From positions 1 through 9,484 of IMG/VR virus record IMGVR_UViG_2531839207_000025: a DNA stretch of 9,484 bases; one strand, given 5' to 3'. Under the pieces are notes generated by a model. The model had not been told where the DNA came from. It ran no database searches and saw only the letters and a program-made list of their open reading frames with translations. Source of the DNA: a virus. Taxonomy: Duplodnaviria; Heunggongvirae; Uroviricota; Caudoviricetes. Below are positions 1 through 9,484 of the stretch, in pieces (position 1 is the stretch's first letter; each line of letters begins with the position of its first letter). The position numbers were made by a program, and so were the translations under genes.

Positions 1-282
1 ATGGTAGATTGCAGCCACGGTAATTCCAATAAAGATTATCGCCGTCAGCCTGCGGTGGCAGAATCCGTGGTTGCTCAAATCAAAGATGGCAATCGCTCAA
101 TTATTGGTCTGATGATCGAAAGTAATATCCACGAGGGCAATCAGTCTTCTGAGCAACCGCGCAGTGAAATGAAATACGGTGTATCCGTAACCGATGCCTG
201 CATTAGCTGGGAAATGACCGATGCCTTGCTGCGTGAAATTCATCAGGATCTGAACGGGCAGCTGACGGCTCGCGTGGCTTAA
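1..282 (+). CDS. aroF: DAHP synthase, tyrosine-sensitive; C-terminal 93 codons only (gene starts upstream of the window)
   Basis: Open frame from window start to a stop at 280-282; the translation matches my memory of the E. coli AroF C-terminus; tyrA follows 10 bp downstream as in the aroF-tyrA operon. Confidence 0.9.
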
Positions 283-292
283 GAGGTTTATT

Positions 293-1414
293 ATGGTTGC
301 TGAATTGACCGCATTACGCGATCAAATTGATGAAGTCGATAAAGCGCTGCTGAATTTATTAGCGAAGCGTCTGGAACTGGTTGCTGAAGTGGGCGAGGTG
401 AAAAGCCGCTTTGGACTGCCTATTTATGTTCCGGAGCGCGAGGCATCTATGTTGGCCTCGCGTCGTGCAGAGGCGGAAGCTCTGGGTGTACCGCCAGATC
501 TGATTGAGGATGTTTTGCGTCGGGTGATGCGTGAATCTTACTCCAGTGAAAACGACAAAGGATTTAAAACACTTTGTCCGTCACTGCGTCCGGTGGTTAT
601 CGTCGGCGGTGGCGGTCAGATGGGACGCCTGTTCGAGAAGATGCTGACACTATCGGGTTATCAGGTGCGGATTCTGGAGCAACATGACTGGGATCGAGCG
701 GCTGATATTGTTGCCGATGCCGGAATGGTGATTGTTAGTGTGCCAATCCACGTTACTGAGCAAGTTATCGGCAAATTACCGCCTTTACCGAAAGATTGTA
801 TTCTGGTTGATCTGGCATCAGTGAAAAATGGACCATTACAGGCCATGCTGGCGGCGCACGATGGCCCGGTACTGGGGTTACACCCGATGTTCGGCCCGGA
901 CAGCGGTAGCCTGGCAAAGCAAGTTGTGGTCTGGTGTGATGGACGTAAGCCGGAAGCATACCAATGGTTTCTGGAGCAAATTCAGGTCTGGGGCGCTCGG
1001 CTGCATCGTATTAGCGCTGTCGAGCACGATCAGAATATGGCGTTTATTCAGGCTCTGCGCCACTTTGCTACTTTTGCTTATGGGCTGCATCTGGCAGAAG
1101 AAAATGTTCAGCTTGAGCAACTTCTGGCGCTCTCTTCGCCGATTTACCGCCTTGAGCTGGCGATGGTCGGGCGACTGTTTGCTCAGGATCCGCAGCTTTA
1201 TGCCGACATTATTATGTCGTCAGAGCGTAATCTGGCGTTAATCAAACGTTACTATAAGCGTTTCGGCGAGGCGATTGAGTTGCTGGAGCAGGGCGATAAG
1301 CAGGCGTTTATTGACAGTTTCCGCAAGGTGGAGCACTGGTTCGGCGATTACGCACAGCGTTTTCAGAGTGAAAGCCGCGTGTTATTGCGTCAGGCGAATG
1401 ACAACCGCCAGTAA
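293..1414 (+). CDS. tyrA: Bifunctional chorismate mutase / prephenate dehydrogenase (T-protein)
   Basis: ATG at 293 preceded by aagagg; 373 aa; translation begins [26 protein letters not shown] and contains the GGGGQMG dinucleotide-binding motif; length and sequence match E. coli TyrA as I recall it. Confidence 0.95.
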
Positions 1415-1421
1415 TAATCCA

Positions 1422-1449
1422 GTGCCGGATGATTCACATCATCCGGCAC
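1422..1449. terminator. Hairpin between the convergent tyrA and pheA 3' ends; likely bidirectional terminator
   Basis: Inverted repeat gtgccggatga / tcatccggcac lies 8 bp after the tyrA stop and 8 bp from the pheA stop; T-rich on the plus side (cttttc), A/T-rich on the other. Confidence 0.5.
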
Positions 1450-1456
1450 CTTTTCA

Positions 1457-2617
1457 TCAGGTTGGATCAACAGGCACTACGTTCTCACTTGGGTAACAGC
1501 CCAATACCTTCATTGAACGGGTAATTTCCCCTAACTCTTTCAATGCTTTTTGCATTTCCGCTGATTCAAGATTGGCCTGAATATCCAGATAAAACATCTC
1601 TTCCCATGGATTACCGTGAATCGGGCGTGATTCCAGACGGGTCATAATCAGATTGTGGTTGCGCAGCACCAGCAACGCTTCAACCAGCGCACCGGCTTGT
1701 TGCCCGGTCGCCATTAACAACGTCGTTTTCGCCGGAACCTGGTCAGACACGTTAATGGCTTTACGTGCCAACACCACAAATCGGGTGAAGTTTTGTTGCT
1801 GATTCGCTTCAATACGCTCCAGTACCTGCAAACCGTACAAAGTGCCGCCAGCTTCGCTTCCCAACGCAGCAACATGCGGTGATTTTGCCTGTGCAACCTT
1901 TTCCATTGCCGCAGACGTACTTTCGGTATATTCAATCTTCCAGTGAGGATAACGATTAAGGAATTTGCTGCATTGCTGGAATGGCTGCGGATGGCTGTAG
2001 ACCGTATTAATAGTGGATAAATCAGTCGTGCCGGAGACCAACAAACAATGGTCGATAGTTAACGTCATCTCGCCAACAATCGACAAGCTGGTATGTTGCA
2101 GCAGATCGTAAACGTCGTTTATGGCACCGGAGCTGGTATTTTCAATCGGTACGACGGCATAGTCGGCCTGGCCGGTTTCCACCTGATTAAAAATATCGGC
2201 AAATTTGGCGCAGCCACTTTCAATGAATTGCTCAAAGTGACGGGCAGCATACTGGCGCGCCGCAAGATGGGAATAAGAACCTTTGGGGCCGAGAAAAGCG
2301 ATGCGTGCTGAGTGCGGATTAATTTTATTGAGATGTTGCTGGAGCAAAGCCTGCTGAGTTAATACGGAATCTTCAATGATGAGCTGGAACAGGCGAGTAA
2401 TGTAATGGGCGTCCAGATGGTGCGCTTTACCGAGCGTAATTAATCTTTCCAGTAAATCGCGTTCACGATCAATATCTCGTACCGGGCGATGCGAGAGCAG
2501 TTTGGCTTTTCCTACCTCGACGGCCAATTCGCGCCGCTCTGCCAGTAATGCTAATAATTTTTCATCCAGCGCGCTGATTTTCTCTCGCAGCGCCAGTAAC
2601 GGGTTTTCCGATGTCAT
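1457..2617 (-). CDS. pheA: Bifunctional chorismate mutase / prephenate dehydratase (P-protein)
   Basis: 386-aa minus-strand ORF starting [32 protein letters not shown]; ATG is the complement of cat at 2615-2617; matches E. coli PheA in length and sequence as I recall it; sits downstream of pheL and the attenuator. Confidence 0.95.
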
Positions 2618-2637
2618 AGTGTTGCCTTTTTGTTATC

Positions 2638-2668
2638 AATAAAAAAGGCCCCCCGATTTGGGAGGCCT
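2638..2668 (-). terminator. pheA attenuator (leader terminator)
   Basis: On the minus strand: GGCCUCCC-AAAUC-GGGGGGCC hairpin (8-bp GC-rich stem with one G-U) followed by UUUUUUAUU, between pheL and pheA. Confidence 0.8.
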
Positions 2669-2715
2669 TATTGTTCGTCTTCGCATTCTGTTTCACACGA
2701 CGAAACGCCTCCCAT

Positions 2716-2763
2716 TCAGGGGAAGGTAAAAAAGAATGCGAAGAAAAACGGTGTGTGTTTCAT
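2716..2763 (-). CDS. pheL: pheA leader peptide, 15 aa: [15 protein letters not shown]
   Basis: Minus-strand reading ATG AAA CAC ACA CCG TTT TTC TTC GCA TTC TTT TTT ACC TTC CCC TGA; seven Phe codons in 15; it is under the track length cutoff, so not listed there. The K-12 peptide I recall has Ile at position 4 (here Thr, ACA). Confidence 0.9.
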   Translation of the reverse strand: [15 protein letters not shown]

Positions 2764-2788
2764 GTTTGTTTCCTTAAGTGACTTTAGT

Positions 2789-2818
2789 ACAGTACCCGTA
2801 CTGTTTTCACGCTGTCAA
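2789..2818 (-). promoter_or_regulatory. pheL-pheA promoter (-35 TTGACA, candidate -10 TACTGT)
   Basis: Minus-strand TTGACA (plus 2813-2818), 18-nt spacer, then TACTGT (plus 2789-2794), about 25 nt upstream of the pheL ATG; the -10 assignment is by eye. Confidence 0.5.
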
Positions 2819-2819
2819 C

Positions 2820-2843
2820 AAAAAACGCGCCCGAAGGTGCGTT
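2820..2843 (-). terminator. Intrinsic terminator just upstream of the pheL promoter (minus-strand direction)
   Basis: Minus-strand ACGCACCUUCGGGCGCG hairpin followed by UUUUUU; placed to stop transcripts arriving from the integrase side. Confidence 0.45.
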
Positions 2844-2846
2844 GTA

Positions 2847-2930
2847 AAACCCACTGAATTCAATGTTTTCCCTTTGTTTTCAGTGGGTTTTGTTATTGGT
2901 GGGGGTTACTGATTACCCTATAAAACCCAC
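2847..2930. repeat. Repeat-rich junction between the chromosomal locus and the integrase stop; candidate attachment region or Int arm sites
   Basis: aaaacccactgaa (2847-2859) and its inverted copy ttcagtgggtttt (2881-2893) form a 13-bp-arm inverted repeat; a third aaaacccact copy at 2921-2930 ends right before the int stop codon. Confidence 0.3.
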
Positions 2931-3920
2931 TTATGTGGATGAAATGTGGATGCCTCCTTTTAACGGATTAAGTGAAATTGCATCCTGGAGGAAATCAGGA
3001 GCGAGGTGCGCATAGGTCATAGTTTGCTGGATCGTGGCGTGCCCCATAATTCGCTGGAGCGTAAGTATATTTCCTCCATTAATCATAAAGTGAGCAGCAA
3101 AGGTATGGCGTAGAACATGTACAGCCTGTCCTTTTGGTAGGTCTGGCTTAACACTGCGAAGCACCTTGCGATATTCCTCATAATTGACGTCAAACAAAAG
3201 GCCGGATTTCTTTGTTTTGATCTCACTAACAACTTCATCAGAGACAGGAATAATTCGAACTTTTCCGTTTTTAGTTTTGTTAAACGTCACGCGATTATTG
3301 ATGATGTGTTCCGCGCGTAGATTTTTCGCTTCTCCCCATCTCGCCCCAGTACTGAGACAAAGTAGCGTAATCCGCCGGGCATCACCGTTTACTGCATCCA
3401 GCAATTTGGCGATTTCTTCCGTAGTGAGGTACGTCATTTCGGGTGATTTTCGTTTCAAAGAGGGGAGGGCGCGGAGTGGATTTTCTCCGTGAAATTCTCC
3501 GGCATTTGCCAGAAGTGTAAACATTCCTCCGAGATCCGACTCATCACGCCGAACAGTAGACTCTTTTACTCCCAAAGATAAACGGGAGCTTCGATAAGCG
3601 GCCATGAAACGAGCATTAATCTGGCTAACCCTTGGATCATTCATTTCTTTGATGATTTTTTTCAACCTGGTTAGAACGCCGTTAGCATATGGCTTATTGC
3701 GTCCACCCAATTCCCACCATAACGGAAGCAGATCTGAGAGATGACGTTGCTCTGTTGGCTTTTCAAGCCATTCCTTATCGTGCATGTGGCTGAGAACATA
3801 ACGCTCAAAGGCCACTGCATCTGCCTTTTTCTTAAAAATCCGCTGAATCCGACGTCCACTTCGGCCACGCGGTCTAACATCCACTTTATACCGTCCACCA
3901 TCGAGCGCTTTAATTGCCAT
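2931..3920 (-). CDS. int: Phage integrase, tyrosine recombinase, P2 Int-like
   Basis: Minus-strand ORF; preferred start at 3920 (MAIKALDGGRYKVDVRPRGR, ggaggg RBS 9 nt upstream) rather than the track start at 3953; C-terminal motifs ILCLSTGARWGEA, HVLRHTFAAHFMINGG, LQRIMGH and YAHLAP fit the tyrosine recombinase R..H-x-x-R..Y pattern; strong resemblance to P2 Int as I recall it. Confidence 0.9.
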   Translation of the reverse strand: MAIKALDGGRYKVDVRPRGRSGRRIQRIFKKKADAVAFERYVLSHMHDKEWLEKPTEQRHLSDLLPLWWELGGRNKPYANGVLTRLKKIIKEMNDPRVSQINARFMAAYRSSRLSLGVKESTVRRDESDLGGMFTLLANAGEFHGENPLRALPSLKRKSPEMTYLTTEEIAKLLDAVNGDARRITLLCLSTGARWGEAKNLRAEHIINNRVTFNKTKNGKVRIIPVSDEVVSEIKTKKSGLLFDVNYEEYRKVLRSVKPDLPKGQAVHVLRHTFAAHFMINGGNILTLQRIMGHATIQQTMTYAHLAPDFLQDAISLNPLKGGIHISST

Positions 3921-3986
3921 TGGCAAGCCCTCCGGTGAAACGAGGAAAGACATTTCCAGTTTGTAAAACGTAAGAATAATAAAGGG

Positions 3987-4289
3987 TTAACCAATTTTCC
4001 TTTCGGATGGGGGTAAGTCCGTTGGCTCTTGCCCATAGTGTGCGAGAGCCGGAGCTATCTGCCCGGATTCAGGCGCAATTTTTCCAGTCATAAACCACAA
4101 CGCATATTTCTCAAATCTGGGGTTGTTTAGTATTTGCTCAATTACTTCAGCATTAGGGATAGTTTTACCGCTTTCATATCTCCACAGAGCATCACGGTTT
4201 AAACCAAGCATTTTTGCTGTATCCGGGAGGCTAGTAAGTCTCTCGCTTTCACGCATGATTTTTATGCGCTCTCCAATAGTCATACGCAT
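3987..4289 (-). CDS. Immunity repressor, P2 C-like (HTH)
   Basis: Translation MRMTIGERIKIMRESERLTSL...WFMTGKIAPESGQIAPALAHYGQ closely resembles P2 C as I recall it; the track start at 4304 is a TTG codon, so I prefer the ATG at 4289 (ggaga 8 nt upstream) or 4283; sits upstream of int on the same strand as in P2. Confidence 0.85.
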   Translation of the reverse strand: MRMTIGERIKIMRESERLTSLPDTAKMLGLNRDALWRYESGKTIPNAEVIEQILNNPRFEKYALWFMTGKIAPESGQIAPALAHYGQEPTDLPPSERKIG

Positions 4290-4384
4290 GTTGCAATTCT
4301 CCAACGTCTGTATTAATGTTTATACAAATGAGTTTGATTTGGGGCATCCGTCGCAAGAAATACCCCAAACAGGGAGATTATCAC
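4290..4384. promoter_or_regulatory. Divergent immunity switch region between the repressor and cox-like genes
   Basis: 95-bp spacer between divergent starts; contains tgTATTAAt and TTGATT promoter-like hexamers and the inverted repeat tttgggg(4339-4345)...ccccaaa(4363-4369); individual promoters and operators not resolved. Confidence 0.45.
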
Positions 4385-4711
4385 ATGAATGAAGAACTAT
4401 TGAGGGCATTGTTTAAGATCCCAGACCCCATCACCGTCGATGAGTTTTCCCGCCGCACAGGTAAGACCGAATCAGCCGTAAGAAAGTTGGTAGAGCGTCG
4501 ACTCATCCCTCTAACTACTGAGCGCGAGGTTTTAGGCGAGGAAGGGAGTTCGCGCCGTCTTCTCATCCTTTGGAATGAGTGGCTCGAAATGGTCTATGAC
4601 GCAACGAAACAACTTCCTCCTGAGCGTAAAGATTGGCGCAATCACTGGCTTAAGAAAGCCAAGAAGCTGGCGGAAGATTTGGGATTAGGCTTTCTTAATT
4701 TTGCTGCATGA
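4385..4711 (+). CDS. Cox/Apl-like excisionase-regulator (small HTH protein)
   Basis: ATG at 4385 with gggag 9 nt upstream; 108 aa; segment VDEFSRRTGKTESAVRKLVERRLIP resembles the P2 Cox DNA-binding region as I recall it; divergent from the repressor gene. Confidence 0.65.
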   Translation: MNEELLRALFKIPDPITVDEFSRRTGKTESAVRKLVERRLIPLTTEREVLGEEGSSRRLLILWNEWLEMVYDATKQLPPERKDWRNHWLKKAKKLAEDLGLGFLNFAA

Positions 4712-4729
4712 GATGCAGGGAGTTTTGAT

Positions 4730-5071
4730 ATGAAACAGCAACGTAATTCACGCTTTCGTAATGGTGCTGAACGCCACGCTAACCGTTTCGCTACCAGTGC
4801 ATCGCGTAGCAACTCTCGCTACAGCCTGAGCGAAACACACGCAACGCCGGATGGCTACCCAGTAAAACAAATCGGCGAGCACGCCTGGTTGATTGAGAAA
4901 GCTGGAATCGTGGTCCACAAATGCCCACGCAACCCATTTACCGGAAACCGCATTTTTGCACTGAGCAACGGCGACAATCAGTTCGGGCAGGATTTCACAT
5001 TATACGAAGCACTTCGCACGGTTGATCGTCTGCTTCGCGGGCAAAGTTTTATTAAACAGGCTGATTTATAA
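4730..5071 (+). CDS. Hypothetical early protein, 113 aa, basic Ser/Arg-rich N-terminus
   Basis: ATG at 4730 with agggag 8 nt upstream, 18 bp after the cox-like stop; I do not recognise the protein. Confidence 0.6.
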   Translation: MKQQRNSRFRNGAERHANRFATSASRSNSRYSLSETHATPDGYPVKQIGEHAWLIEKAGIVVHKCPRNPFTGNRIFALSNGDNQFGQDFTLYEALRTVDRLLRGQSFIKQADL

Positions 5072-5081
5072 CAGGTGCTTT

Positions 5082-5360
5082 ATGACCAAAGAGCATGCAC
5101 AAGGTGTATTTATCCGTTTTATTGATTTTCGCGGTGAACTGTTATTACGCGCATCAGCCATTGACGGAGTTGTTCCATCAGAAAAAAACGCAGCTACTTA
5201 CGTTTATCTGAACGGTACGCGCCTGACTGTGGAGCTTCCGTACCAGACCGTACGAGAAATCATTAGCGAAGCTGAAAAGGCACGTCAGGTTAATGGCGAT
5301 GAACCCTATATCGAAATTATTTGTATGGATTCAGAAGCTGAAATTCAGAAAGCAGATTAA
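5082..5360 (+). CDS. Hypothetical early protein, 92 aa
   Basis: Preferred start ATG at 5082 (aggtg 7 nt upstream), in frame with the track ORF 5022-5360 but not overlapping the upstream gene. Confidence 0.55.
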   Translation: MTKEHAQGVFIRFIDFRGELLLRASAIDGVVPSEKNAATYVYLNGTRLTVELPYQTVREIISEAEKARQVNGDEPYIEIICMDSEAEIQKAD

Positions 5361-5371
5361 AGGGCGTTGCG

Positions 5372-5614
5372 ATGGGCAAAGAATATAAAACTCTCATTAA
5401 CAAAGCACTTGAGCGTTTTTATTTTCGCTTAAGTGCATCAGGCGCTCATGCTGAACGTGCAGCCCGTGACTCATTGACCAGGGCAATCCGGAGTTTGTAT
5501 GACGTCGCTTTTTACGCTGATGATCTGGATGCACTTAACGAACTTTCCGAGCTGATCTGTGCCGCAGAATGCGGGGAACATATTGAACCGTATAAGCTGG
5601 GGAATATCGCATGA
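5372..5614 (+). CDS. Hypothetical early protein, 80 aa
   Basis: ATG at 5372, 11 bp after the previous stop; tightly packed in the same orientation. Confidence 0.5.
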   Translation: MGKEYKTLINKALERFYFRLSASGAHAERAARDSLTRAIRSLYDVAFYADDLDALNELSELICAAECGEHIEPYKLGNIA

Positions 5615-5724
5615 GTATATTTATCTCATGGCTTGTTCTGATGATTTCGGTGGCCTGCGCCATTGGAATTATGCGAATTATTCATTCAGTAAAAAAGATT
5701 GAACGTTTTTTCACTGGTGAATAA
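5611..5724 (+). CDS. Small hydrophobic protein, 37 aa: MSIFISWLVLMISVACAIGIMRIIHSVKKIERFFTGE; one predicted transmembrane helix
   Basis: Its ATG overlaps the upstream TGA (ATGA at 5611-5614); not in the ORF track because of the length cutoff; hydrophobic core followed by a basic tail. Confidence 0.35.
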   Translation: MSIFISWLVLMISVACAIGIMRIIHSVKKIERFFTGE

Positions 5725-5817
5725 CGATACAAATAAAACATCAAATTAAATAAGAAAACGTGAAAACCATCCGTATTAACGGAGGTATTCGCACACGCAA
5801 ATAACGGAGATACAAAA

Positions 5818-6228
5818 ATGCACGCAAAAGAAGAAGGTATCATCAGAGCACTGAAAGAAATTTCAAAGATTGAAAGCGAAGTAGCGAAAAAAGCCGTAGC
5901 AAATGCTCATATAGACGTCGCTACCCACGCAATGATAGTCGCAAAAGTCACGGCAGAAGCCGCCAAAATCATCGAAGAACAGGGTGCGGAACTTACGCTT
6001 TTCAAAACTCAACCAGTCACCGGACTGGATTTATCTAACACCGGACGCCTTATTTACACAATTGGCTCGGAGCTACAGCGATACACCATTATCGCCGGAT
6101 TACAGGGCAAATACCTGATCACTCCTCACCCCATAAGGGAATCAGAAATTCTGACAAATCTCCGCCTGATAGATCGCTCTCAAGTTGCATTCATTGATGA
6201 CGCACAGCACACCGTATTTAACGCATAG
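5818..6228 (+). CDS. Hypothetical protein, 136 aa
   Basis: ATG at 5818 with ggaga 7 nt upstream; preceded by a 93-bp AT-rich spacer; I do not recognise the protein. Confidence 0.6.
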   Translation: MHAKEEGIIRALKEISKIESEVAKKAVANAHIDVATHAMIVAKVTAEAAKIIEEQGAELTLFKTQPVTGLDLSNTGRLIYTIGSELQRYTIIAGLQGKYLITPHPIRESEILTNLRLIDRSQVAFIDDAQHTVFNA

Positions 6229-6255
6229 GGTTATTGGACAAAAAAAGGGGGGGCA

Positions 6256-6459
6256 ATGGCAATTAAGCATTTTCCCGTCGTTCGCTTTACCTCCAGAGGG
6301 CGCGAATACGAGGTCGACGAACGCCTGATTACCACTATCGACAAACATCGTTCGGAAAAGGATGCACACCACATCTACCTCACTGACGGCACTTACTTCT
6401 GCGCCACTAATGTGGCGCGGGTAAACCTTATCCGACAGGTACAGGAGCATCGTAAATGA
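6256..6459 (+). CDS. Hypothetical protein, 67 aa; first gene of a four-gene translationally coupled module
   Basis: ATG at 6256 immediately after an A7-G7 tract that serves as the RBS; its stop overlaps the next start (ATGA). Confidence 0.55.
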   Translation: MAIKHFPVVRFTSRGREYEVDERLITTIDKHRSEKDAHHIYLTDGTYFCATNVARVNLIRQVQEHRK

Positions 6460-6674
6460 GCAGAAAGCGAATCACACGCAGGCATCGCCGCACACACATG
6501 AATTCCTTACCGACGCTGAAAGAACTCATTCAACACGAGATCGCTGATTTCTGCGCACCGCTGGGGTCGCCTGGCGAACCGGAAACGCCAGAAGCGATGC
6601 AGCGCGAACTCATGATGCGCATCGATAACGTTTTTGACTTTTTCCTGAATAACAAAAGAGAGCAATCAACATGA
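6456..6674 (+). CDS. Hypothetical protein, 72 aa, strongly basic N-terminus (SRKRITRRHRRTH)
   Basis: ATGA overlaps at both ends (6456-6459 and 6671-6674). Confidence 0.55.
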   Translation: MSRKRITRRHRRTHMNSLPTLKELIQHEIADFCAPLGSPGEPETPEAMQRELMMRIDNVFDFFLNNKREQST

Positions 6675-6874
6675 ACAAAAAGACCTGGTTTCGCGCATAT
6701 ATGTGGGCGCTGGTATGCGTCCTCGTCTCTCTCATTCTGTATGCAGGACTACTCCCCCGAATGATTTCATCAGACAGCTCCTTCCTGGTATTGCTGGGCA
6801 TTTTCATTGCCATGCTGTACCCGGCAGGCGTTGTTCGCCTTTTCAGTAAGTACATCAAGGAAATCAAACAATGA
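6671..6874 (+). CDS. Small integral membrane protein, 67 aa, two predicted TM helices
   Basis: Hydrophobic stretches WALVCVLVSLILYAGLL and FLVLLGIFIAMLYPAGVV; ATGA overlaps with both neighbours. Confidence 0.6.
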   Translation: MNKKTWFRAYMWALVCVLVSLILYAGLLPRMISSDSSFLVLLGIFIAMLYPAGVVRLFSKYIKEIKQ

Positions 6875-7701
6875 AGAAATTCAAACTCTTTCAGATTCTC
6901 CCGCTTTTTGCCGCCATCCTGCTGGTTGGCTGCGATCGCGTTGAGCCAGGTAATGTGGGCATCAAAGTCAACAAGCTGGGCGACGACAAAGGCGTTGGCG
7001 AAGTGGTTGGCGTTGGCCGCTACTGGACTGGCTGGAATACCGAGGTTTACATCTTCCCGACCTTCAAACAAATGAAGACCTACGATGACCCGTTCAGCTT
7101 CCAGATGAGTGACGGCACAACCATCGGCTATCACATCGGCGTGGCCTACAAGGTCGATCCATCCAAAGTTACCACAGTGTTTCAGACCTACCGCAAAGGC
7201 GTGGACGACATTACCGACACTGACCTGCGCCAGAAGATCGCCGACGCACTCAACCGACTGGCCAGCAAAATGACCACAGATAAATTCATCGACGGTGGCA
7301 AGTCTGAACTGCTGGATTCAGCACTTAAAGATATTCAGGAAGAGATGACCCCCATCGGCATTCAGGTCATGAGCCTCTCTTATGTCGGTAAACCGGAATA
7401 TCCGCCAACCGTTATCGACAGCATTAACGCCAAAGTCACGGCAAACCAGAAAACCCTGCAACGCGAACAGGAAGTCAAGCAACGCGAAGCAGAAGCCAAC
7501 ATGTTGCGCGCAGAAGCTGCCGGACAGGCTGATGCCATTCGCACAAAAGCCCAGGCTGAAGCCGACGCCATTCGTTTACGCGGTGAAGCTCTGCGCCAGA
7601 ATCCCGGCGTTATGGAGCTGGAAGCAATCAACAAATGGAACGGCACGCTACCGCAATACATGACCAGCAATACCGCTGTTCCGTTTGTTCCGGTGAAGTA
7701 A
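6871..7701 (+). CDS. Lipoprotein with SPFH/Band-7 (stomatin/prohibitin/HflKC-like) domain, 276 aa
   Basis: N-terminus MKKFKLFQILPLFAAILLVGC has a lipobox (LVGC); the body, with a long Ala/Glu/Arg-rich predicted helix (REQEVKQREAEANMLRAEAAGQADAIRTKAQAEADAIRLRGEA), resembles SPFH-family organisation; assigned from sequence pattern, not a search. Confidence 0.75.
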   Translation: MKKFKLFQILPLFAAILLVGCDRVEPGNVGIKVNKLGDDKGVGEVVGVGRYWTGWNTEVYIFPTFKQMKTYDDPFSFQMSDGTTIGYHIGVAYKVDPSKVTTVFQTYRKGVDDITDTDLRQKIADALNRLASKMTTDKFIDGGKSELLDSALKDIQEEMTPIGIQVMSLSYVGKPEYPPTVIDSINAKVTANQKTLQREQEVKQREAEANMLRAEAAGQADAIRTKAQAEADAIRLRGEALRQNPGVMELEAINKWNGTLPQYMTSNTAVPFVPVK

Positions 7702-7707
7702 TTAAAC

Positions 7708-7732
7708 CCGGCCAGTGAAAACCGCTGGCCGG
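7708..7732 (+). terminator. GC-rich hairpin 7 bp after the SPFH gene stop; possible terminator or RNA-stability element
   Basis: ccggccag / ctggccgg 8-bp stem with a 9-nt loop; the nearest T-run (atttttt, 7745-7751) is 12 nt downstream, so not a canonical intrinsic terminator. Confidence 0.3.
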
Positions 7733-7869
7733 AGCAGTATCAGGATTTTTTAGTATGCCGTTCTCACAAAAAAACCGCTTGCCATGCCGCAATCAGTCAG
7801 GTTACATTTCCGCTGCACCTCATAAAACGGGTGCCGGGTTTCGCAGCCTGCTGACTACAAGAGCGCACA

Positions 7870-7889
7870 ACCGCGCCAGCGGTTTTTTT
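7870..7889 (+). terminator. Candidate intrinsic terminator inside the ORF-free spacer
   Basis: accgc-gcca-gcggt short hairpin immediately followed by seven T; a second T7 run at 7910-7916 has only a weak stem before it. Confidence 0.35.
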
Positions 7890-7930
7890 GTGCGTACTGT
7901 ATTGCCACGTTTTTTTCGCGTCAGAATTAT

Positions 7931-8006
7931 GGCGGGGCGTACGGGGCCGACTTCGGTCGGGCCGGGATCTCTTGTAGCCGGTACTGCGAACCTCGTACGT
8001 CTCGCC
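7931..8006 (+). ncRNA. Candidate structured RNA element, 76 nt, family unknown
   Basis: 13-bp closing stem ggcggggcgtacg (7931-7943) / cgtacgtctcgcc (7994-8006) with two G-U pairs that would be A-C mismatches on the opposite strand; internal hairpin GGGCCGAC-UUCG-GUCGGGCC (7944-7963); in an ORF-free spacer. Confidence 0.25.
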
Positions 8007-8068
8007 ACCCACAGTTTCGCAGCTCTGGATGGTGAGTTTTCACAACTTACTACAAGAGGCCACATATC

Positions 8069-8299
8069 ATGGCAAACCGCAAACAGCACCGCGCTATCGC
8101 GGAGCGTCGTCACATCCAGACTGAAATCAACCACAGACTTTCCCGCGCATCACGCGTCGCGCAAATCATGCACATCAATATGCTGCATGAGCGCAGCCAC
8201 GCACTATCAAACATTTATTCCGCCTCTGTTTTCAGCTATCTGGCGGATGATCTGCACGAGCTTCAACAGCTCATCCAGCAGCAAAACAAACTCCATTAA
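8069..8299 (+). CDS. Hypothetical protein, 76 aa
   Basis: ATG at 8069 with aagagg 9 nt upstream; ordinary amino acid composition, unlike the overlapping 206-codon frame. Confidence 0.5.
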   Translation: MANRKQHRAIAERRHIQTEINHRLSRASRVAQIMHINMLHERSHALSNIYSASVFSYLADDLHELQQLIQQQNKLH

Positions 8300-8371
8300 T
8301 TCCTGTTCCGGGCCTTTCCTGCACCTTGCGGCGGGAGGCCTTCGCACATCTGTAACAAGAGGATTGCCGCA

Positions 8372-8737
8372 ATGATTCTCGCCAACGACTTTCTTGAATA
8401 CCTGCTCAACACAGAACGTGATCTTGCCGCTCGCGTGCGTGATCGTTATGACATGTACCTGAAATCCCTGCCTGTACCGCAGCTCGCTGACGGAAAGATT
8501 GTTATTGATGGTCGCTACATGATTGACAGCCACGAGGGAAATTACAGGCTTTACCGCATTGAAGGTGGCACCCAGTCCGTTATTGGCATTTACCAGCGCC
8601 CATCCTCTGCAATCGTCGATGTGATTGCCGACAGCATCCGCATCACACATCGCCATGCCGACACAGAAGACACCGTGCTGGAAATTCAGCGGCTGGCTAC
8701 AGTCTGCCGCGACACCCTGAATGGCATGACGAAGTAA
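8372..8737 (+). CDS. Hypothetical protein, 121 aa
   Basis: ATG at 8372 with aagagg 9 nt upstream; directly precedes the large downstream gene. Confidence 0.6.
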   Translation: MILANDFLEYLLNTERDLAARVRDRYDMYLKSLPVPQLADGKIVIDGRYMIDSHEGNYRLYRIEGGTQSVIGIYQRPSSAIVDVIADSIRITHRHADTEDTVLEIQRLATVCRDTLNGMTK

Positions 8738-8743
8738 ATCACT

Positions 8744-9484
8744 ATGACGGCAGAGTACATCAGGGACTGGCAACAACCGCGCCACGCAGTGGGGCGTGAA
8801 GGAACGGGGATCCCCGCTCCTGAATCCGCGCTTTCCTCCTGGCTGGATGCCTACCGGGTAGAGAACGAGCGCCGCCAGGAAATGGCTGATGCGGCGTTCT
8901 CCGCCACGCCGCTGGGCAACCTGATTAATAAAAGCCTGGACGCACAGGAAAAACAGGACAAAACCATCACACTGGCAGGAGACGCCAGAAAACAGGCACG
9001 CGGCGCGGTGGATGAAGCCATGGCCTCGCTGCGCCTGCTGCCGTCCTATCTGCGCGATCCGCTTATTCGCCACCTCTCCTTCCTGCGCAAAAAACAGGAA
9101 GCCGATCGCCGGAAAGGCAAAAAGAGCTGGCAGGCGGAACGCTATGCACGCGGAACCCTGCGCAAAATATTCGAACGTCTGGATAGCACTGACGGACGCT
9201 GGCTGACACCGGGTTATCGCTCCCTTGCCGGACGCGAACGCCTGGACGATTTGCTTTACCTGCCGCAGCTCAACAAACACCAGATACAGACGCTGGCCAC
9301 CATGACGGCGGCGATGTTCAGCAGCACCTTCGAAAAACTCTGCGATGGCTTTGGCGCGACCGATGGCGAGCTGACCATGGATGTAACCCTGAAGGCGTAT
9401 CAGATGCTGGCCCGCATGGCGTTACACCTGCACGCCATGCCTCCACATTATGACGCACTGACAACAGACAAAGACCGGAGGAAC
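8744..9484 (+). CDS. 5' part of a large gene, open to the window end; possibly a P2 gpA-like replication initiation endonuclease
   Basis: ATG at 8744, 6 bp after the previous stop, in frame with no stop for 247 codons to the window end (missing from the track because it has no stop); the position after int-C-cox and small early ORFs corresponds to gene A in P2-like phages; sequence resemblance to gpA is from weak memory. Confidence 0.55.
   Translation, partial: MTAEYIRDWQQPRHAVGREGTGIPAPESALSSWLDAYRVENERRQEMADAAFSATPLGNLINKSLDAQEKQDKTITLAGDARKQARGAVDEAMASLRLLPSYLRDPLIRHLSFLRKKQEADRRKGKKSWQAERYARGTLRKIFERLDSTDGRWLTPGYRSLAGRERLDDLLYLPQLNKHQIQTLATMTAAMFSSTFEKLCDGFGATDGELTMDVTLKAYQMLARMALHLHAMPPHYDALTTDKDRRN

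Follow-up and report, generated by a model that had tools for sequence, protein, structure and literature searches.

A C4-type antisense RNA module ahead of an epsilon-like gene in a P88-like Escherichia coli prophage

What is a stretch of about 370 base pairs (bp), rich in hairpins and seemingly empty of genes, doing inside an otherwise tightly packed phage operon? The question is raised by a virus of the Caudoviricetes, IMG/VR record IMGVR_UViG_2531839207_000025, of which positions 1 to 9,484 were analyzed on one strand, 5' to 3' (9,484 nucleotides (nt) in full, hereafter the window). The stretch in question is the spacer at 7702-8068, between a gene for an SPFH protein and the genes downstream of it. 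A first-pass annotation had described a 76-nt stem-loop element in this spacer, and had given an open list of roles, from a phage small RNA to a protein-binding site or a transcriptional insulator, without identifying any of them.

We consider it highly probable that the spacer is the RNA immunity and antirepressor-control region of a P88-like, P2-family E. coli prophage, working by the mechanism of P1 c4 and P4 CI. The 76-nt stem-loop belongs to the C4/CI family of antisense RNAs, so the phage small RNA on that list was the right entry, and its excision from a longer transcript would be expected by homology. The C4 family has been known since 1990 from work on phages P1 and P4. The element is a standard member of it, and the arrangement has already been recognised in P1, P4, Gifsy-1 and Rfam.

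Two RNA family matches in one spacer

An Rfam scan, which the first-pass annotation had proposed, was run over the whole window with the curated gathering thresholds. It found two full-length, above-threshold matches in the spacer, both on the plus strand. The C4 model matched at 81.1 bits against a cut-off of 45 (E 3.7e-15, model positions 1-87 of 87). For isrK the score was 66.7 bits (cut-off 50), with the model covered over positions 1-77 of 77. The structured "ORF-free" spacer is a textbook type of phage regulator, detected at high score by current RNA family models. The RNA elements are:

7779-7808, plus strand: sigma-70-like promoter (TTGCCA, 18-nt spacer, TACATT), a consensus match
7815-7889, plus strand: IsrK / P4-seqA-type leader RNA, Rfam RF01394
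7925-8012, plus strand: C4 antisense RNA of the P1 c4 / P4 CI family, Rfam RF01695
7947-7960, plus strand: UUCG-capped hairpin of C4
7961-7982, plus strand: C4 hairpin 2, with a 12-nt loop
7983-7990, plus strand: C4 single-stranded joiner

The 76-nt element lies at 7931-8006 and has the 13-bp closing stem that had been described, including the two G-U pairs G7935-U8002 and G7937-U8000. The stem extends further, to 17 bp (7930-7946 with 7991-8007) and three G-U pairs, and the UUCG hairpin is present inside it as described. The mature RNA is predicted to run from ~7931 to ~8010. The minimum free energy (MFE) fold of C4 is the family consensus, a long closing stem around two hairpins. Folding the C4 region on the plus strand gives -46.7 kcal/mol (z -4.9), and none of 200 shuffled sequences folded as well; the minus strand gives -29.0 kcal/mol (z -1.8). 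This difference between the strands bears out the earlier argument that the element is a plus-strand RNA rather than a DNA palindrome.

For comparison, 19 relatives were gathered by blastn against a phage collection, and a contig search with the 76-amino-acid protein encoded next to the spacer gave three loci. The relatives are P88, P88-like prophages of Salmonella, E. albertii and Citrobacter, a dozen lambdoid/Stx phages, and ST64B, cdtI, phiKO2 and a Klebsiella phage. Across these 19 homologues, 99.8% of the pair cells in the C4 stems hold standard pairs, against 31-47% in slid controls, and 14 of the 27 pairs show compensatory changes in which both sides have changed. The homologues therefore contain the compensatory changes that the first-pass annotation had suggested looking for. 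Two features at the ends of C4 are invariant in the alignment: U-1/G+1 (7930/7931) at the 5' side, and a CC two positions past the stem (alignment columns 84-85), which gives a 3' A-CC. Such tRNA-like ends are consistent with a 5' cut by RNase P and 3' trimming. The c4 precursor is reportedly a substrate of RNase P, a finding said to go back to Hartmann et al. in 1995.

The second match, upstream of C4, consists of a 5' hairpin (7815-7834), a second hairpin and a single-stranded stretch, followed by an intrinsic terminator. The terminator, located as a consensus match by a terminator scan, has its stem at 7869-7884 and a U7 run at 7883-7889. The IsrK hairpins also show compensatory changes among the relatives. 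Hfq binding by this RNA, suggested by the family name, is putative. The promoter-like site at 7779-7808 ends 7 nt short of the IsrK 5' end and is the predicted promoter of the IsrK/C4 transcript. P88-like, lambdoid and phiKO2 loci have a promoter-like TTGAnn...TAnAnT pair equally far upstream of isrK, and the positions of both the promoter-like site and the terminator are conserved in the relatives. The tandem of isrK and then C4 is found in 19/19 relatives, with a gap of 20-35 nt, and the GenBank record of Stx2 phage F039 annotates both noncoding RNAs side by side.

Both T7 runs noted earlier, at 7883-7889 and 7910-7916, are present in the sequence. The first belongs to the terminator of the IsrK/seqA-type RNA. 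Nothing supports a role for the second: as a terminator it has no preceding hairpin, and it is not conserved, reading TCTTTTT in other P88-like copies and falling in a different, shorter linker in the lambdoid relatives. Another promoter-like site, at 7902-7930, was also rejected. Other P88-like copies read TCGCCA at its -35 hexamer, its -10 coincides with the conserved C4 leader AAUUAU, and transcription begun from it would truncate C4.

Recognition sequences and the gene they face

C4 carries two short recognition segments, a' and b', and each of them has one complementary site upstream and one downstream. The sites and the genes that follow them are:

7840-7846, plus strand: b1 (UUCGCAG), inside IsrK on its second hairpin, complementary to b'
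7855-7863, plus strand: a1 (CUACAAGAG), inside IsrK in its single-stranded stretch, complementary to the a' loop
7969-7977, plus strand: a' (CUCUUGUAG), in the 12-nt loop of C4 hairpin 2
7984-7990, plus strand: b' (CUGCGAA), in the C4 3' single-stranded joiner
8016-8022, plus strand: b2 (UUCGCAG), 4 nt after the end of the C4 match, complementary to b'
8050-8059, plus strand: a2 (CUACAAGAG plus G8059), exact complement of a' over 8050-8058, with a G8059-U7968 wobble possible
8069-8299, plus strand: gene for the 76-amino-acid protein, the first gene 3' of the spacer
8372-8737, plus strand: orf121, between the 76-amino-acid gene and gene A
From 8744, plus strand: replication gene A (PF05840 Phage_GPA), running off the window

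The 9-mer of a', a1 and a2 occurs three times in the window, all within 210 nt, against 0.04 expected. The a2 site overlaps the Shine-Dalgarno sequence AAGAGG (8054-8059), which stands 9 nt before the ATG at 8069, and a2 falls on the Shine-Dalgarno sequence in nearly all relatives as well. The order and polarity of the sites are such that b and a can pair co-linearly with one C4 molecule. This is the layout known as a1b1 / a'b' / a2b2 in P1 immI and as seqA / seqB / seqC in P4. At the functional core of the module is a three-way match, in which the C4 loop and joiner are complementary both to the sites in IsrK and to the sites at the ribosome-binding site of the next gene. A dedicated Rfam model for the upstream segment of P1, c4-a1b1 (RF03163), scored 20.5 bits at 7802-7854, under its cut-off of 46.7; the segment that carries a1 and b1 here is an isrK-type version that does the same job. 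A third C4 target, at the ribosome-binding site of orf121 (ACAAGAGG, ~8355-8362), was considered and set aside as coincidence, since it is unchanged in P88-like relatives with a different a'.

The complementarity is kept up across the relatives even as the sequences themselves change. In a MAFFT alignment, the 16 intermolecular IsrK-C4 pairs are 98.3% paired (slid controls 27-53%), 14 of the 16 show compensatory changes, and the covariation score is 0.926 against 0.215 in shuffles. Cognate duplexes, averaged over the 19 loci, come to -13.6 kcal/mol for a1, -14.2 for a2, -9.6 for b1 and -9.6 for b2, and non-cognate duplexes average -4.8, -6.5, -4.0 and -3.5 kcal/mol in the same order. The recognition segments are the most variable part of C4, at 1.25 bits for a' and 1.13 bits for b' against 0.52 bits for the stems, and the 19 loci hold 17 distinct a' alleles and 13 distinct b' alleles. 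Among P88-like copies of 92-97% identity, substitutions cluster in the a and b sites, and a and b alleles reassort. P88 itself has a' CUGUAGUUG and b' GUGGAAA, and one Salmonella copy combines the a allele of this window with the b allele of P88. Clustered and reassorting substitutions of this kind are the pattern expected of immunity-specificity determinants. If the a and b sequences are specificity alleles, then phages with different alleles should be heteroimmune. The hypervariable alleles would also make a ready marker of RNA-immunity specificity among prophages.

The b' sequence CUGCGAA is identical in the lambdoid Stx phages ASU11, Stx2_112808 and Stx1_14744. With its a' shared with a Salmonella P88-like prophage and its b' with Stx phages, partial cross-recognition between unrelated prophages is conceivable.

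The gene behind the a2 site points to what is being controlled. Its 76-amino-acid product matches Pfam PF25738 "Derepression" at 34 bits (cut-off 27), and in a tblastn comparison it is 34% identical to P4 epsilon over 50 residues (E 4e-3); P4 epsilon itself scores 170 bits on PF25738. P4 epsilon inactivates the P2 C repressor. The product of 8069-8299 is therefore predicted to be distantly related to the P4 epsilon "derepression" antirepressor. What follows C4 in the lambdoid relatives is a gene for an Ant/Rha antirepressor, and in phiKO2 icd-antA-antB. A hairpin at 8310-8342, after the epsilon-like gene, folds like its shuffles (z -0.7).

Work on P1, P4 and Gifsy-1 suggests how such a module might operate. 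Transcripts from the promoter at 7779-7808 would start at ~7815, and most of them would end at the IsrK terminator (7869-7889) to give an IsrK RNA of ~75 nt. Read-through transcripts would carry the C4 precursor, from which the tRNA-like C4 would be excised, with its 5' end made by RNase P as for P1 c4, to leave an RNA of ~76-80 nt. The a' and b' segments of this RNA would then pair with a2 and b2 on the read-through mRNA and hide the Shine-Dalgarno sequence of the epsilon-like gene. Left untranslated, the RNA would tend to be terminated early in a Rho-type manner, which would hold back orf121 and replication gene A too, and a polar effect on these two genes is likely. IsrK would bind C4 through a1 and b1, in cis on the precursor and in trans as free IsrK, and so act as a decoy that sets the level of free C4. 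From the work on P1, P4 and Gifsy-1 we infer that IsrK is the decoy and C4 the repressor of the epsilon-like gene. The first-pass annotation had suggested that the spacer separates the accessory module from the replication genes; the part of this that stands is that the region would gate the downstream genes, a replication gene among them, and the plain insulator does not.

Known systems and competing explanations

Among the closest known systems is the immI region of P1 and P7 (a1b1 - c4 - a2b2 - icd - ant; RF01695 and RF03163, clan CL00128), which by covariance model belongs to the same RNA family. Both systems have a closing stem around two hairpins, and two recognition segments, each of them complementary to one site upstream and one downstream. 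In both, the downstream pair of sites lies over the ribosome-binding site of the next gene, which in P1 opens an antirepressor operon and here is predicted to do so, and allele differences would set the specificity here as in P1. In P1, c4 binds around the ribosome-binding site and so represses ant (PMC12197685). The differences are that this is a P2-family phage, that the regulated gene encodes the epsilon-like 76-amino-acid protein where P1 has icd/ant, and that the upstream a1/b1 segment scores as isrK rather than c4-a1b1 and has its own intrinsic terminator.

P4 is arranged as seqA - CI RNA (seqB) - seqC, followed, as here, by a PF25738 gene and further downstream by a replication gene. 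On the minus strand of the P4 genome the isrK model matches at 8692-8615 and the C4 model (CI RNA) at 8507-8420, with epsilon at 8175-7888. Because P4 has both matches upstream of epsilon, the P2-family prophage and the satellite P4 share the whole isrK-C4-epsilon cassette. The spacing differs, since epsilon begins ~245 nt after CI in P4, and the gene here begins 57 nt after the C4 match, with a2 on its Shine-Dalgarno sequence. P4 immunity relies on RNA alone, whereas the phage here also has a P2-type C repressor (3987-4304, minus strand).

Experiments on Gifsy-1 show that IsrK pairs with a downstream C4-like RNA, orf45/STnc1160, and controls translation of an antirepressor, AnrP, which is turned on when IsrK is provided in trans (Hershko-Shalev et al. 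2016, PMC4825925). Those authors described IsrK as a structural homologue of P4 seqA and likened STnc1160 to CI (PMC4825925). The P88-like module is predicted to share with Gifsy-1 an IsrK with its own terminator, read-through into a processed RNA of ~80 nt that is complementary to IsrK, and then an antirepressor gene. Unlike the P88-like module, which is known from sequence, Gifsy-1 is lambdoid, its antirepressor is AnrP, and its model couples translation of orf45 to that of anrP. The linear-plasmid prophages phiKO2/N15 have the isrK and C4 matches in tandem directly upstream of their icd - antA - antB operon, as here, with different genes downstream.

A literature search did not find the phrase "c4 antisense RNA" together with "P2-like". 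A C4 module ahead of an epsilon-like gene in P88-like P2-family phages thus seems undocumented in searchable papers, and it would be a modest extension of the family, not a new kind of element. A P2-family phage that carries P4's cI-epsilon cassette bears on the origin of the satellite's helper-derepression machinery. That P2-family helper-type phages carry the cI-epsilon cassette of satellite P4 opens a broader and more speculative reading, of which we remain doubtful as a whole. The C4-controlled epsilon-like protein could serve the phage as its own switch for induction, or be used as a weapon on resident P2-like prophages that are heteroimmune. The derepression/immunity module of P4 might have been taken from its helpers, or exchanged with them. 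Reassortment of the a and b alleles could perhaps let prophages of different families that share a cell cross-regulate each other's antirepressors. The frame through C4, taken up below, may stay open because passage of ribosomes through the C4 gene is part of the switch.

Several points weigh against the proposed mechanism. The promoter and terminator are predicted from consensus matches only. The action of the epsilon-like protein on the prophage's own C repressor is putative. A search for LexA boxes near the promoters gave only two one-mismatch matches to CTGT-N8-ACAG, both inside downstream genes and at chance level, so no LexA box and no link to the SOS response were found. Release of mature C4 may also have to compete with an alternative fold of the read-through RNA. 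In the MFE fold of 7815-8075 on the plus strand (-105.5 kcal/mol, z -4.3), b1 and a1 of IsrK are paired in cis with b' and a' of C4, the C4 closing stem is opened, and the a2/Shine-Dalgarno region is unpaired; this cis fold matches the inactive "structure A" of the Gifsy-1 study. The Gifsy-1 model, furthermore, stresses activation by IsrK and translation of the ORF overlapping the C4-like RNA, not repression (PMC4825925).

The same RNAs could act mainly as they do in P4, and we regard this as a possible but less probable account. C4 would then pair with the nascent a1/b1 (seqA) and a2/b2 (seqC) sites and chiefly cause premature termination, with the translational block secondary, and the termination would silence replication gene A in the lysogen. 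In P4, too, the isrK model precedes the C4 model, with epsilon and the replication gene alpha downstream of both, and replication gene A lies downstream in the same unit as C4 here. P4 CI has been reported to terminate transcription via seqA and seqC, keeping the replication genes off (summarised in PMC4825925). The position of a2, exactly on the Shine-Dalgarno sequence here and in nearly all relatives, is instead the P1-type arrangement. The two modes are not mutually exclusive, and sequence alone would not separate P4-style termination from a P1-style translational block.

Readings in which the RNA plays no part fare worse. It is hardly credible that the spacer is a plain transcriptional insulator, ending the SPFH transcript, or a protein-binding DNA palindrome. 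The terminator-like hairpin and T-run at 7869-7889 and the hairpin after the SPFH stop would fit an insulator, but a DNA element would not explain the G-U pairs, the strand-specific stability, compensatory changes of the RNA type (including G-U/A-U/G-C interchange), hypervariable loops that co-vary with distant sites, or two full-length RNA-family matches, and the second T-run is not conserved. Nothing supports the protein-binding DNA site that had been on the earlier list. The claim that the spacer holds no credible open reading frame (ORF) proved right only after analysis, since mechanical ORFs cross it at 7755-8375 on the plus strand (206 amino acids) and at 7797-8012 and 7820-8134 on the minus strand, and some are annotated in GenBank. 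That the 206-amino-acid frame, of the "Ash family", is a real gene and the RNA structure incidental seems very unlikely to us, even though three observations lean that way. The frame of an invariant AUG at 7929, at the 5' edge of C4, is stop-free from C4 to the next gene in 20/21 loci against 12.8 expected from randomised complementary a/b alleles (P ~4e-4, with allele sets that are not fully independent); the 206-amino-acid ORF matches Pfam PF10554 (Phage_ASH) at a sub-threshold 22.9 bits against a cut-off of 26; and the overlapping "orf45" of Gifsy-1 has been detected as a tagged protein. There is, however, no codon periodicity, with variability of 0.72, 0.70 and 0.74 bits at the first, second and third codon positions. 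Variability follows the RNA structure instead of the codons, and compensatory base-pair changes account for the conservation. The relation of the frame to the next gene depends on lineage, being an out-of-frame overlap with the epsilon-like gene here and in frame with ant in lambdoid phages, and PF10554 maps onto the isrK-C4-target RNA region in P4 and lambdoid phages. The 206-amino-acid ORF was therefore rejected as a protein, and selection may act at most on the openness of the AUG-7929 frame, not on a protein sequence. The two minus-strand ORFs, and a minus-strand "hypothetical protein" of P88, have no family match.

The stop-free AUG-7929 frame is in keeping with reports that Gifsy-1 orf45 is translated. 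When the count begins further upstream, at the start of isrK, stops turn up in the other two frames in 20/21 loci.

PF10554 appears to model a conceptual translation of the isrK-C4-target RNA module, not a protein. It matches the old conceptual "cI" coding sequence of P4 that lies over the CI RNA (L021, P4 8168-8584, minus strand), and the N-terminal extensions of lambdoid "antirepressor/Rha" coding sequences (L008 646-1797; L015 647-1804), which are annotated ~360-600 nt too long. Several lambdoid phage records present the module as the N-terminal end of antirepressor genes that are drawn too long. PF10554 served as the marker for epsilon in a survey of P4-like satellites (PMC8628076); P4 epsilon itself is PF25738. 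In phage TL-2011c, a full-length match to another Rfam family, sRNA-Xcc1 (RF02221, 79.6 bits against 53), lies downstream of the Rha gene (L018 2023-2106).

Chromosomal setting and annotation of the prophage

The prophage, a P2-family element of the P88-like (Xuanwuvirus) type, sits beside pheL in an E. coli host. Its closest relatives among phages are P88 and further Xuanwuvirus members of the Peduoviridae. The remaining features of the window are:

293-1414: tyrA
1457-2617, minus strand: pheA
2639-2764: Phe leader (pheL/pheA), Rfam Phe_leader at 132 bits
2931-3953, minus strand: prophage integrase
3987-4304, minus strand: P2-type C repressor
4316-4711: Cox-like gene, with small early genes after it
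6871-7701: SPFH gene, adjoining the studied spacer
7708-7732, plus strand: GC-rich hairpin 3' of the SPFH stop, with a 10-bp stem and a 5-nt loop

Over its left 4.4 kb the window matches complete E. coli genomes at 99.7% identity. These first 4.4 kb span the junction between chromosome and prophage and are covered to at least 80% in 125 of 5426 complete E. coli genomes; sequence similar to 7702-8299, the module or close relatives of it, is found in 1282 of the 5426. About 170 bp separate the end of the integrase gene from the pheL/pheA leader, and the window holds no tRNA genes.

Database records have treated the module in different ways. In RefSeq, the spacer of E. coli RIVM_C037166 (L001 3001-3367) has no noncoding RNA feature, and the locus tag RS08460 is skipped there. 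The GenBank record of P88 likewise has no noncoding RNA feature for the module, and places its minus-strand "hypothetical protein" across isrK and C4 (L002 5033-5221).

The GC hairpin that had been described right after the SPFH stop is present at 7708-7732. A 59-nt fold around it gives -21.7 kcal/mol (z -3.3), and it has no adjacent U-tract. P88-like phages that lack the SPFH gene show homology to the window only from ~7765, which assigns this hairpin to the SPFH cassette rather than to the RNA module. Several P88-like phages (vB_EcoM-569R5, P884B11, PhiR44_2 and Shae_phiSM) share the window only from there, and the SPFH gene with its hairpin (window 6871-7764) behaves like an insertable cassette, and in Shae_phiSM, where this was checked, another gene lies upstream of the shared segment.

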